Sequence record: MK327931.1
Length of the DNA: 64,000 bases
From: Escherichia phage vB_EcoM_G17
Reading direction: 5' to 3' (one strand)
This document shows positions 29,700 through 53,261 of the stretch, one piece after another. The position numbers and the translations under genes are program-made. Below the pieces are notes generated by a model, which ran no database searches, had not been told where the DNA came from, and worked only from the letters and a program-made list of their open reading frames with translations. Each line of letters starts with the position of its first letter. Position 1 is the first letter of the stretch.

Positions 29700-29709
29700 G
29701 TTATTTATA

Positions 29710-46856: not shown

Positions 46857-47693
46857 ATGGCTATGAATCCACTTGCTAAGTACACTAAAATTGAAGAGAT
46901 CAGTACTAAGTTAGTTACAAACGGCGTTATTCCTTATAAAGAAGGAGTTCTAGGTCCAAAAGGTGTCAAATGTGGAGTTTGTGCACGTAGTGCACGTGAT
47001 GAAATGACACTTAATACCCCCGATATGTTACTAAACGGAGATGCAGTATCCCGTGTTATTGAAAACTGTGTTCCTAATGTAATTGACGCTGATGAGTTGT
47101 ATGTAAATGACGTTGAAATGCTTCTTATTGCTATTAAAGTTGCTTCCAAAGAAGAAACATATGATATTAACGTTGTATGTCCTGAATGTGAAAAAGAAGG
47201 TCGATTTGAGCGTAATCTATCATATCTTCTTGAAACTGCACAAGCATTTGAAGAAATCCCATCAATTGATTTAGATAATGGACTCCGTTTAGAATTTAGA
47301 CCACTGACATGGAAAGAATATTCATCGTTTGCTGAACGCATGTTCAGTGAGCAGCAGAAGACTAAGTTTCTTGAAACTGCTGATATTGATAAAGATGAAA
47401 AAGTAAAAATATTTTCTGAAGTATTTGAAAACATGGCTCAACTTAACTTCGACATGATCGGTGGAGTTATTGCAAAAATTATAACACCAGATGGTGATGA
47501 AGTAGTTGAAAAAGAATTTATTAATGAATGGCTTGGACAACAATCGAAGGGAGTACTTAAACTAATTCGTGAAAAAATGGATGAAGTACTTGAAATTGGA
47601 GTATCACATAGTATGGAAGTAGAATGTGATGGATGTAATCATCAATGGGAAATTGATGGACTAAAATATGATCCTAGTCATTTTTTCGAGTAA
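46857..47693 (+). CDS. Hypothetical protein with two CxxC pairs
   Basis: 278 aa; CGVC...CPECEKEG and CDGCNH; TGGAGA SD; preceded by a late-promoter element. Confidence 0.5.
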   Translation: MAMNPLAKYTKIEEISTKLVTNGVIPYKEGVLGPKGVKCGVCARSARDEMTLNTPDMLLNGDAVSRVIENCVPNVIDADELYVNDVEMLLIAIKVASKEETYDINVVCPECEKEGRFERNLSYLLETAQAFEEIPSIDLDNGLRLEFRPLTWKEYSSFAERMFSEQQKTKFLETADIDKDEKVKIFSEVFENMAQLNFDMIGGVIAKIITPDGDEVVEKEFINEWLGQQSKGVLKLIREKMDEVLEIGVSHSMEVECDGCNHQWEIDGLKYDPSHFFE

Positions 47694-47902: not shown

Positions 47903-47911
47903 TTTTCATAT

Positions 47912-47938
47912 AGCCAGCACATTGTTGCTGGTTTTTTT
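47912..47938 (+). terminator. Rho-independent terminator
   Basis: ccagca-cattgt-tgctgg stem followed by a run of seven T. Confidence 0.7.
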
Positions 47939-47939
47939 G

Positions 47940-48737
47940 GTTTTAAACTACAGAATTATTTGAATTGAATTATGAAAGGATTAATTTTAATATTATTGGA
48001 TTCATCTAACTCATTTCATTCGTTAGCTGAAGAATATTCGTTACTACGTAACTCATATTCATTTAATTAAATTAATTATAAAGAACTTTAAAAGATTTAA
48101 TACTTGACGGGATTTGTTGAGGACATTTTCATCCCCCCGCAGGGGAATGAAGACAATAAAAAAGAGACAATGAAGTCTCTATTTCTTGACGCTGATGGTT
48201 TCAGCATTTATTGTATTGCGAATTTCTTAAAAATATATTAAGAACGAAAGCGGGTTGCTCTGTTTCTCTCTATCGCAGTCATGTGCAACGGTCGTCAGTC
48301 TTAATCATCCTGACACTCACCTGAAAGTCTATACAATCAAACTTCAGGCTGTTTATTAAAATCACTTAATAAACTCCCTTAGCAAATCTGGTAAGGTGCG
48401 ATCCTTATATGTCTATCGAGGAACTCTCTGTATGCTTATCGGAGTTCTTTATTGAGCCGCATTGCCGTGAGGGGTTCAAACTATGCCCACATCTAACGGG
48501 TTTCTTTTGCTCATCGCACTGTTGAACTGCTCATCTGCCATCTACATTTTCGATAGGATCAGGTTCTAATTTATATGCATTTCTGCATTCAACAGGATTG
48601 TCATTACTACAACAAACATTATAGCACAAACTTTAAAGTTGTCTCACTATTTTTATAAAAATATTCATTAAGTACTTAAAATATTGCAAATAACTAATCT
48701 ATAAATATTTTGATAACAAATAGTTTGGTGAGGAATT
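47940..48737. other. ORF-free, hairpin-rich intergenic region of about 0.8 kb
   Basis: No ORF of 60 aa or more on any frame; local GC about 40-50% at 48120-48540 against about 30% in flanks; several perfect short inverted repeats. No tRNA cloverleaf could be drawn. Confidence 0.5.
48700..48707 (+). promoter_or_regulatory. Late promoter TATAAATA upstream of the Endo VII-like gene
   Basis: Exact TATAAATA 31 nt upstream of the ATG at 48738; GAGGAA SD. Confidence 0.5.
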
Positions 48738-49229
48738 ATGAAAAAAAGATTAAAAGATAGTAAGGATGCTGCAAACTATCGAAACGAATTACTAAAGAAA
48801 CAAAATGGAATAGATCCTATAATTAAAGAACCAATAACTAAACCAGTACTGGATCACTACCACTATGGTAACCAACATTGTAGACAAGTTCTTCAAAATG
48901 AAGTCAATGCTTGGGAAGGAAAGGTACAAAACAGCTTCAATCGATATATGAAGCACTTAACTGATAAACCATTATATGAGGTACTCAGAAATCTTGCTGA
49001 TTACTTAGAGCGTAATAACAGCATTCCTGACGATGAACAAGTTATACATCACACTGCACTAACTGTGGATGTTAATAAGTTTAAAAGGCTTCCAGCAACA
49101 CAGCAAAACGCGATTCTGGAAGGGTTAGGAGTTGTCCCTGGTAGTAACACTACTGCTCGTGTAAAGCAAGCCAGAAAGCTGATTAAGGACGGTAAATTAA
49201 ATATGGTTGATATAAAAAAAGGGAGCTAA
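48738..49229 (+). CDS. gp49: Endonuclease VII-like Holliday-junction resolvase (T4 gp49-like), zinc ligands apparently replaced
   Basis: 163 aa. QNGIDPII / VLDHYHY / NEVNAWEGKVQNSFNR parallel T4 Endo VII QNGKCLIC / HLDHDHE / NLCNAAEGQMKHKFNR as recalled; the four Zn-ligand Cys positions read D, I, Q, V here. Confidence 0.55.
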   Translation: MKKRLKDSKDAANYRNELLKKQNGIDPIIKEPITKPVLDHYHYGNQHCRQVLQNEVNAWEGKVQNSFNRYMKHLTDKPLYEVLRNLADYLERNNSIPDDEQVIHHTALTVDVNKFKRLPATQQNAILEGLGVVPGSNTTARVKQARKLIKDGKLNMVDIKKGS

Positions 49230-49245
49230 GGCTCCCTTTATCTTT
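49211..49245. terminator. Bidirectional terminator between convergent gp49-like and gp46 genes
   Basis: aaagggagc-taag-gctcccttt stem flanked by an A-run and T-rich sequence; the gp49-like stop codon lies in the loop. Confidence 0.6.
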
Positions 49246-51403: not shown

Positions 51404-52435
51404 TTATAACGATCTGTAAATTTGGATTAGAAGATTTTTATCAAACATTGGTGAATCAATTTCCATAATTTGCTGCAAAACTATCTCATCAACTGATTCA
51501 GTACTTTCAAAACTAACACCATCTTCGATTAATTCTGAAATACTTTGCTTGCTTGTCACAACATTAAACTCTCTAATGTTATAAAGTTTAGTAAATGTAT
51601 CACGAATAAAACTAATCTCATCAGTTGTTATTGATATATCAACTTGAACTTTTGATATTGTGTTATCTTGTAGATAATAGCTTGGATCAGTCAACAATTC
51701 AGAAAGTGTGAATGTTCTATATTTTGGTGCATTATCCCATGACTTGAAAATAGGTTCTTTGCCATGTTCAAGAATCATCACACCTCTTGCATCATCCCAT
51801 GTATCGGAAAAATTATGTGGAAAACAATTACCAGTATAAACTACACGAGTTCCTTTTGAAGTTGTTTTTGACTGTCGTTTATGAAAATGTCCACTAAAAA
51901 CATACTCACATCCACCAAAAGAACCTTCTGTTTCTTTTCCATGATCAGGCATTTCTACCATCTTGTTAAGCAAGTAACCTGGTAACTCTAAGTGACCAAA
52001 AACATACTTACTTTTTAGTTGAGGTAACAACTTATATTCATCTTCAATCATAAATGGAATGAAAGTACAATCATCAAAGGTTGTAATTTCATTAATGAAT
52101 TCTATATTTTCATAAACTTGAGCCATATTGATACTTGTTATATCACGTTTGTTTTTATGATACATATCATGGTTGCCGACTAAAAAATATACTTTTTCAA
52201 AATTATCATTTAATAATTGAAGAATTTGTAAACCATAGTTTAGTGTTTGAATATTGATATTACTTCTATTATGAAAATAATCTCCCATAAAAACACAAAC
52301 TTTGATATTATTTTTTTTAGCTACATCAATCATGAATTTAATGAAGTTTAAACAATCTTCATTGTGTTGCTTGCTGTTATTCTTTAAACCTAAGTGAATA
52401 TCAGTGAATGTAATTGCTTTATCAAACAGAGCCAT
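51404..52435 (-). CDS. gp47: Recombination endonuclease subunit gp47 (Mre11/SbcD-like nuclease)
   Basis: ORF-track start is TTG; ATG at 52435 (MALFDKAITFTDIHLG) has an AAGGA SD. Phosphoesterase motifs DIHLG, GDYFH, GNHD, GHFH. Confidence 0.85.
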   Translation of the reverse strand: MALFDKAITFTDIHLGLKNNSKQHNEDCLNFIKFMIDVAKKNNIKVCVFMGDYFHNRSNINIQTLNYGLQILQLLNDNFEKVYFLVGNHDMYHKNKRDITSINMAQVYENIEFINEITTFDDCTFIPFMIEDEYKLLPQLKSKYVFGHLELPGYLLNKMVEMPDHGKETEGSFGGCEYVFSGHFHKRQSKTTSKGTRVVYTGNCFPHNFSDTWDDARGVMILEHGKEPIFKSWDNAPKYRTFTLSELLTDPSYYLQDNTISKVQVDISITTDEISFIRDTFTKLYNIREFNVVTSKQSISELIEDGVSFESTESVDEIVLQQIMEIDSPMFDKNLLIQIYRSL

Positions 52436-53261
52436 CTTCATTTTTCCTTTCAATCATGTTCAATTCAATTTCAATTTGACGTGTATGTGATGGCGTAAAG
52501 CCATGCATTTCAAGTAAATCATCACGTATATTTCGAACATTTTTCTCACTATTCAATATAGAACGAAAACTATTGTTTACGAATGATGTATAGTAAGAGA
52601 AAGGATTTAGCTGAACTGCTGGTTTATCTTTTTTATAAAGAATGCTCTCTTTAAAGAGAAGTGCGTTTTTAACTAATTGTATTCTTGCATCACCCATCAT
52701 TTCATCTAAGTATGTATAGTTTCTGTAATTAGATTTATGAGAGATTTCCTCAGCAAGTTTAATGAACATCTTCCCTAGTTCATTTGTAATTTTACCATGA
52801 ACAGTACTGAATTCACCAGTTTCAAGATCTCCTTTCCAATGAGAACGACATACTTCATAGAGAATTCCTTCATTATCTACAATGTAATGCTTGAATGGTT
52901 CAAAGTTAACTCTAGTGTCGGGTGGAATATGTTCATCAGTGATAACACGAATAACAACTTCATCGATTGGAACATCAGTGATAACTAAATTATTTTCATC
53001 TGCATATTCTTTAGCTTTTTTAGCACTCATACTTTCCTTTTCACGAATACTATCAAGCATTTCATTGTTTAGTCGTTTGATTCGTGCTGCTTTGGCTTTT
53101 TCAAGTAACTCAGTAGTAATTTCTGACTCATGAAAAACAATATAATCATACATACTATATGATTTGTCTAATAACCAGCAGTATGAAATCTTACTTTTTT
53201 GTATTTCACGAAGTAAATCAGCATTATTGAGATACTTTTTACGCTTTGGCCTATTTGTCAT
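52422..53261 (-). CDS. gp55: Late-transcription sigma factor (T4 gp55-like)
   Basis: N-terminus ...KKYLNNADLLREIQKSK... parallels T4 gp55 ...PKYNYVNNKELLQAIIDWK... as recalled; synteny 55-47-46 as in T4. 279 aa, longer than T4 gp55. Confidence 0.6.
   Translation of the reverse strand: MTNRPKRKKYLNNADLLREIQKSKISYCWLLDKSYSMYDYIVFHESEITTELLEKAKAARIKRLNNEMLDSIREKESMSAKKAKEYADENNLVITDVPIDEVVIRVITDEHIPPDTRVNFEPFKHYIVDNEGILYEVCRSHWKGDLETGEFSTVHGKITNELGKMFIKLAEEISHKSNYRNYTYLDEMMGDARIQLVKNALLFKESILYKKDKPAVQLNPFSYYTSFVNNSFRSILNSEKNVRNIRDDLLEMHGFTPSHTRQIEIELNMIERKNEDGSV

Follow-up and report, generated by a model that had tools for sequence, protein, structure and literature searches.

Among phage junction resolvases, T4 endonuclease VII is the textbook example, and a Cys4 zinc site is regarded as one of its defining features. 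The wider His-Me finger superfamily already includes members that have lost the zinc knuckle, and these nucleases stabilize the beta-beta-alpha-Me core without a treble-clef zinc. However, these knuckle-less nucleases belong to other families and carry other stabilizing decorations, and endonuclease VII is listed among the proteins that have the knuckle (PMC5714182). According to the summary of Giraud-Panis et al. (1995) provided in PMC6083498, the C23S and C61S mutants of the T4 enzyme are inactive and do not bind DNA. Loss of the zinc site is thus not trivially tolerated, and this is the main argument against a functional enzyme that lacks zinc. The same source describes F-CphI, a homing endonuclease of cyanophage S-PM2 that uses the endonuclease VII catalytic motif and retains its CxxC motifs; with the resolvase it shares only the catalytic domain, located at the C-terminus of F-CphI (PMC6083498). 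A comparative study of jumbo phages reports that the Rak2-like group carries T4 endonuclease VII-like resolvases, in a pattern nearly complementary to that of RuvC, and makes no comment on zinc (PMC7824862).

The window analyzed here is a stretch of 64,000 nucleotides from Escherichia phage vB_EcoM_G17 (MK327931.1), a Rak2-like jumbo phage of ~350 kb with 34.6% G+C. Positions 48738-49229 on the plus strand constitute an open reading frame that begins with ATG and encodes 163 amino acids plus a stop codon, and a Shine-Dalgarno sequence, GGTGAGGA, can be read from the sequence at 48727-48734, three bases 5′ of the ATG. The translation is 100% identical to annotated proteins of the Asteriusvirus jumbo coliphages phAPEC6, SP27 and G17, which are publicly named ‘EndoVII packaging and recombination endonuclease’, ‘endonuclease VII’ or ‘phage endonuclease’. 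Given that the gene name in public phage records is already correct, what is gained here is a refinement, and the function is not newly discovered. The protein resembles T4 endonuclease VII (gp49; PDB 1EN7, 1E7D, 2QNC) in length (163 versus 157 amino acids), in its D-H-x-H...R...N..E series of residues, in its predicted C-terminal helical domain and in its membership of PHROG 423. It differs in that D, I, Q and V replace C23, C26, C58 and C61, and in having a four-residue deletion after the first knuckle and another deletion in the beta-hairpin loop. The Pfam dimerization domain PF09124, which the T4 protein matches with 115 bits, was not detected in the window protein.

The register of this comparison is the same in four independent alignments. 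BLASTP aligns the protein to T4 gp49 with E=8e-5 and 34% identity over 77 residues, where the gp49 sequence used itself scores 352.7 bits against PDB 1e7d/1en7 over residues 1-157. MAFFT alignments with 120 close homologues and with 139 cluster representatives reproduce the BLASTP register. An HMM built from 61 zinc-less homologues and searched against all PDB sequences has T4 endonuclease VII as its only match (E=1.4e-18, T4 residues 6-154), and hhalign pairs the two with 97.7% probability (E=2.2e-12, 117 columns, reaching T4 residue 135). A phmmer search of the PDB sequences with the single protein yielded no match, and the T4 enzyme was reached only by a profile of homologues. In BLASTP, MAFFT, the profile HMM and hhalign alike, QNGIDPII of the window protein is paired with QNGKCLIC of T4, and VLQNEVNAWEG with LLCNLCNAAEG. 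The preliminary description of this locus, made from the letters alone, had aligned the catalytic motifs LDHYHY, NAWEG and FNR with those of T4 by eye, and this assignment is borne out, including the conserved FNR.

The catalytic residues of the beta-beta-alpha-Me motif are all present. T4 D40, H41, H43, R54, N62 and E65 correspond to D39, H40, H42, R49, N57 and E60 of the window protein in all four alignments. The D39-H40-Y41-H42 codons (48852-48863, plus strand) encode the catalytic D-H-x-H, equivalent to T4 D40, H41, D42 and H43, whereas N57 and E60 lie at the end of a second stretch (48894-48917, plus strand) that begins with the second knuckle position. Close homologues with E<0.001 number 139; in the 120 of these that were listed (58-100% identity to the query), D39, H40, H42, N57 and E60 do not vary, and the two homologue alignments (A1, and A2 of 66 sequences) show no variation at R49. 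Among the more distant cluster representatives described below, the catalytic D, H and H are kept in 138-139 of 139. This lack of variation among homologues is a sign of purifying selection at the active site.

The structural zinc site, CxxC...CxxC in T4, is absent. T4 C23, C26, C58 and C61 correspond in the four alignments to D26, I29, Q53 and V56, as the by-eye comparison had also placed them. The first knuckle position (T4 C23-L-I-C26) is occupied by D26-P27-I28-I29 (codons 48813-48824, plus strand), and the second (T4 C58-N-L-C61) by Q53-N-E-V56, the first four codons of the 48894-48917 stretch. A shifted alignment that restores the Cys4 site was considered and is ruled out by the composition of the protein: the 163 residues include a single cysteine, C48, adjoining the conserved R49 (T4 R54), and no change of register can bring four ligands back from one.

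In the T4 enzyme, the zinc serves as a clamp between the loop that follows helix 1 and the N-terminal end of the catalytic helix. In the window protein this clamp would be replaced by an Asp-Pro-Ile turn (D26-P27-I28), an aliphatic I29, a polar Q53 and a small hydrophobic V56. We infer that a hydrogen bond or helix cap centered on D26, possibly involving Q53, and hydrophobic contacts between I29 and V56 jointly take over the stabilizing role of the metal. If so, the D-P-I replacement would represent one way for this fold to do without zinc.

It could be argued that the protein is cysteine-less but not metal-free, with the old site still binding a metal through oxygen or nitrogen ligands such as Asp26, Gln53, the backbone or water. 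Such an arrangement would account for the fact that the residue at T4 position 23 is always Asp in the 120 listed close homologues, and for the residues found at the four positions in other representatives (DTHS, DTHT, DTDT and DTDS), all of which are able to ligate metal. However, two of the four positions in the window protein are Ile and Val, which cannot serve as ligands, and positions 26, 58 and 61 (T4 numbering) vary across the clade, unlike those of a true metal site. We therefore regard a residual metal site as unlikely, and a metal-free former knuckle as the probable state of this protein.

An AlphaFold2 model of the protein, computed from an input alignment of 66 sequences and without metal, has a mean pLDDT of 94.8, with values of 98 in both former knuckle segments. 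The predicted elements, helix 8-21, a hairpin formed by 36-40 and 48-53, helix 54-70, and helices 79-93, 107-116, 120-129 and 138-150, follow the same order as the secondary-structure elements of T4 endonuclease VII, and the model has the T4 protomer fold. Foldseek searches of the PDB with this model gave significant matches only to T4 endonuclease VII (1e7l, 2qnf and 1en7; E=6.6e-7 to 3.4e-6), with an alignment of 157 columns and TM scores of 0.66/0.68. The next matches have E>1, which rules out a better match to another HNH family. The AlphaFold2 model, the HMM and Foldseek agree in extending the correspondence through residues ~79-150 (48972-49187, plus strand), which are probably equivalent to the helical arm and the dimerization and DNA-binding domain of T4.

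Domain databases give a more uneven picture. The protein matches the PHROG 423 ‘endonuclease VII’ profile at positions 1-155 of 159 (E=1.3e-35), a PHROG to which T4 gp49 is also assigned. On the other hand, it scores 14.8 bits on Pfam PF02945 (Endonuclease_7), below the gathering cut-off of 23.6, and an NCBIfam search with the protein gave no match. Zinc-less relatives score 25.8-37.8 bits on PF02945, including the rV5-like and RSB1-type proteins, which lie above the gathering score where the window protein lies below it. Because several zinc-less relatives pass the threshold, the Pfam family already contains zinc-less members. For purposes of annotation, the Pfam model under-scores this subfamily, leaving the present protein below the gathering threshold. 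Together, the shared PHROG, the profile and hhalign matches and the full-length fold match support the assignment of the product as a probable full-length homologue of T4 endonuclease VII.

The subthreshold Pfam score could also be the signature of a degenerate remnant, with no catalysis or a poor fold, left after the structural zinc was lost, as might be suspected from the inactivity of the T4 Cys-to-Ser mutants in the summary cited above. A remnant of this kind is not expected to show what is seen here, namely catalytic residues invariant in the 120 listed homologues (139 at E<0.001), a further 242 clusters at 50% identity that match at E<=0.001, an intact open reading frame with a ribosome-binding site, a promoter-like motif and a terminator, and a confidently predicted fold. 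We consider this explanation highly improbable.

With a probability that we place at roughly 80%, the gene product is a functional, zinc-independent structure-specific nuclease of the T4 gp49 type that is expressed late in infection and debranches DNA for packaging. Most likely it is a homodimeric His-Me finger nuclease dependent on Mg2+, in which D39 and N57 would coordinate the catalytic Mg2+ and H40 would act as the base, with H42, R49 and E60 also retained. Its role would be the cleavage of Holliday junctions and other branched DNA, to make the concatemeric genome fit for packaging. We suggest that a zinc-free endonuclease VII with few cysteines could serve as a more robust reagent in mismatch or heteroduplex cleavage assays.

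The zinc-less state is not peculiar to this protein. In the 120 listed close homologues, the first ligand position is Asp throughout; Ile, Thr or Leu occupies the second and Gln, Asp or Glu the third, and the fourth is Val, except for 18 homologues with Cys. To look further, an exhaustive phmmer search was made of 1.84 billion cluster representatives (50% identity), which returned 242 clusters at E<=0.001. The 139 representatives of 110-259 amino acids among the 150 listed of these 242 were aligned and sorted by their ligand residues. A complete site is present in 11 (CCCC in seven, CCHC in four), a count that includes the T4 reference, so that the classes sum to 140; 54 keep Cys at the first position only, 72 have Asp there, and three have another residue or a gap. 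Of the 139 aligned representatives, 128 lack a complete zinc site, which makes the zinc-less state the majority among the relatives found, although these proportions describe the branch of the query rather than all endonuclease VII homologues because the search began from a zinc-less protein. The four-position patterns are often D-T-H/D-S/T.

These observations bear on the suggestion in the preliminary description that a zinc-free member of the family would be structurally unusual. The complete absence of ligand cysteines stands, but the state itself is widespread among the listed relatives, and knuckle loss has precedents in the superfamily (PMC5714182). Zinc-less forms occur in the rV5-like Vequintavirinae, in Ralstonia phage RSB1 (Autographiviridae) and in the Rak2-like jumbo phages. 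The ‘endonuclease VII’ proteins of these three groups share Asp or another non-Cys residue at the first ligand position, the D-P-I turn and the catalytic residues, with the RSB1 protein being shorter at 121 amino acids. A literature search found no biochemical study of any zinc-less endonuclease VII member and no paper noting zinc-knuckle loss for endonuclease VII homologues, and the branch as a whole does not seem to have been described as zinc-less before.

The turn G-x-[D/C]-P-I, with the first ligand position in its middle, is kept in all ligand classes; D26 does not vary in the 66-sequence alignment, where P27 and I28 reach at least 90% conservation. A search outside the four ligand positions for a compensating residue confined to the zinc-less classes, for example one that could form a salt bridge with D26, found none; R15, Q22, R49, R69 and others show the same degree of conservation among zinc-containing sequences. 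A neighbor-joining tree was computed after masking the four ligand columns. Each of the three classes forms local clusters in it, but members of the zinc class are scattered and parsimony requires ~25 changes; this tree is thus too weak to distinguish one loss from several. We lean towards the view that a large and diverse clade of phage endonuclease VII resolvases folds and works without a structural metal, the Asp-Pro turn and hydrophobic packing having taken the place of the Cys4 clamp. If this is true, the clade would be a natural case of a treble-clef zinc knuckle evolved away inside one enzyme family, and could supply junction and mismatch nucleases that need no zinc and are insensitive to oxidation. 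If most relatives in the branch indeed work without the site, then zinc would be a lineage-specific stabilizer and no requirement of the fold.

Several variants among the relatives deserve mention. The lone first-ligand Cys of 54 listed representatives occurs in patterns such as CLSA, CTSS and CLHA, and these forms may be an intermediate or alternative state between the Cys4 and Asp forms. Cys is found at T4 position 38 in 24 listed representatives. The rV5-like homologue of E. coli O157 typing phage 5 (L002:2914-3519; also P0146) has D, L, S and T at the ligand positions and four other cysteines at T4 positions 27, 38, 53 and 60, and these could form a relocated metal site or disulfides. A protein of 5650 amino acids (P0123) matches query residues 90-155 in 11 separate stretches, from which it seems that this giant protein carries the C-terminal helical module of endonuclease VII in tandem copies.

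The open reading frame sits in a conserved neighborhood of recombination and late genes. On the opposite strand lie genes for gp46-like and gp47-like recombination nuclease subunits and for a gp55-like late sigma factor (~52422-53261, three genes away), and portal and structural genes lie upstream. In T4, gene 49 likewise maps near the genes for gp46, gp47 and gp55. The order portal, structural, endonuclease VII, gp46-like, gp47-like and gp55-like is kept in phAPEC6 (Asteriusvirus), Cronobacter phage GAP32 (Mimasvirus) and Erwinia phage Kaldavass, with endonuclease VII identities to the window protein of 74% for GAP32 and 62% for Kaldavass. This conserved order fits a core gene and not a mobile one.

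The neighborhood is also informative about whether the protein might be a redeployed HNH nuclease, acting in homing or nicking or against a host or another phage in the manner of F-CphI, rather than a junction resolvase. The endonuclease VII catalytic motif is known from the account in PMC6083498 to have been recruited for homing in cyanophage S-PM2, and in Salmonella phage SPLA5a (Vequintavirinae, Seunavirus; L004:2318-3507) a gene with the annotation RuvC-like Holliday junction resolvase lies immediately upstream of a zinc-less endonuclease VII-like gene. A homologue therefore need not always be the only resolvase of its phage, and the presence of both types in SPLA5a raises the question of a division of labor. 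The window protein, however, is homologous to the T4 enzyme over its full length, including the predicted C-terminal helical domain, whereas F-CphI shares the catalytic domain only. Moreover, its gene holds a fixed place in a conserved neighborhood, occurs once in the window and is accompanied by no mobile-element features that could be seen there. Redeployment is accordingly improbable in our estimation, and a packaging resolvase remains the preferred reading.

A signal consistent with late expression precedes the gene. A T4-type late-promoter-like octamer, TATAAATA, is located at 48700-48707 on the plus strand, 31 nucleotides 5′ of the ATG, and may function as the late promoter that the preliminary description had assigned to this gene. 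The window has eight copies of the octamer against ~10 expected, and so there is no overall enrichment, but six of the eight lie 17-48 nucleotides upstream of gene starts (46815, 48700, 53350 and 59389 on the plus strand; 39648 and 40857 on the minus strand) in a genome that is almost entirely coding. This placement, and the presence of a gp55 homologue nearby, are consistent with late promoters of the T4 type. For the copy at 29702 on the minus strand, the next called start is 265 nucleotides away, and a short uncalled gene may lie between. GAP32 and Kaldavass lack the stretch that carries TATAAATA and have a TAAATAC motif in the aligned upstream region.

At the other end of the gene, a terminator-like hairpin spans 49218-49239, with a 9-bp stem (AAAGGGAGC/GCTCCCTTT) and a four-nucleotide loop, TAAG. 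The TAA stop codon (49227-49229) lies inside this loop, as had been noticed earlier, and the hairpin is shared with the convergent gp46-like gene. Since T-runs follow the stem on both strands, the element is terminator-like in both directions and could terminate both convergent genes. Two genes upstream of the endonuclease VII-like gene, a 278-amino-acid protein (46857-47693, plus strand) has three CxxC motifs (CGVC, CPEC and CDGC) and may be of the zinc-ribbon type; its counterpart in Erwinia phage Kaldavass is annotated ‘baseplate hub’.

The region immediately upstream of the endonuclease VII-like gene proved to contain a conserved structured element that may be more novel than the endonuclease VII finding itself. 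The 830 bp from 47903 to 48737 have no open reading frame longer than 45 amino acids and no tRNA. Within them, an element of ~450-550 nucleotides extends over 48085-48650, with a core at 48190-48610 and a strand assignment that leans towards minus. This upstream region is 76% identical, with long invariant blocks, across phages whose flanking endonuclease VII proteins share only 60-74% identity. Rfam has no match in the core at 48100-48600 or at six further loci, and the weak Rfam matches near the element (four at E<=1) all fall at two flanking terminators. A covariance model of the element does not match the four lncRNA loci defined by RNA-seq in the related phage PA5oct (PMC7318152), and a literature search found no account of the element. 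We regard it as a candidate for a new large phage noncoding RNA.

The case for a conserved RNA structure comes from covariation. In the 3′ half, a structure of 45 pairs has 92.9% of its alignment cells paired, compared with 32-46% when the partners are slid by 1-3 columns. Compensatory double changes are found in 25 of the 45 pairs (145 cells), versus 9-13 pairs (15-37 cells) in the slid controls, and among 500 shuffles none reaches the observed value on four of five measures and two reach it on the fifth. A fold of the full-length element has compensatory changes in 35 of 68 pairs.

Folding energies do not discriminate between the strands, but other features tentatively favor transcription from the minus strand. 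At the right end of the element, an extended -10 sequence, TGnTATAAT, with a TGrAAC -35 box 17 nucleotides away (48647-48618, minus strand), points into the element. All 18 of the 18 aligned copies carry its plus-strand equivalent, ATTATAnCA, without variation. At the left end of the element, a hairpin is followed by a T-run (48180-48157, minus strand), and its stem changes in a compensatory manner (AGAGAC/GTCTCT versus AGTACT/AGTACT). The minus strand is co-directional with the flanking genes in three of four contexts. Our best guess is an early transcript of ~450 nucleotides, made by the host sigma-70 RNA polymerase from ~48611 to ~48160 on the minus strand. In about eight of the 18 aligned copies, a second hairpin with a T-run lies directly after the minus-strand promoter.

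The element is found once in the window and repeatedly elsewhere. BLASTN locates it at 286 places in 70 Rak2-like jumbo-phage records, or 4-5 copies per genome. Paralogues within a genome are 56-70% identical, compared with 70-85% for orthologues between genera, which indicates that the copies are old. Other copies include L008:40209-40657 and those at L010-L032, and an exact-pattern scan of IMG/VR added 23 more on 11 contigs. A second copy in phAPEC6 adjoins an RpoD-like sigma gene.
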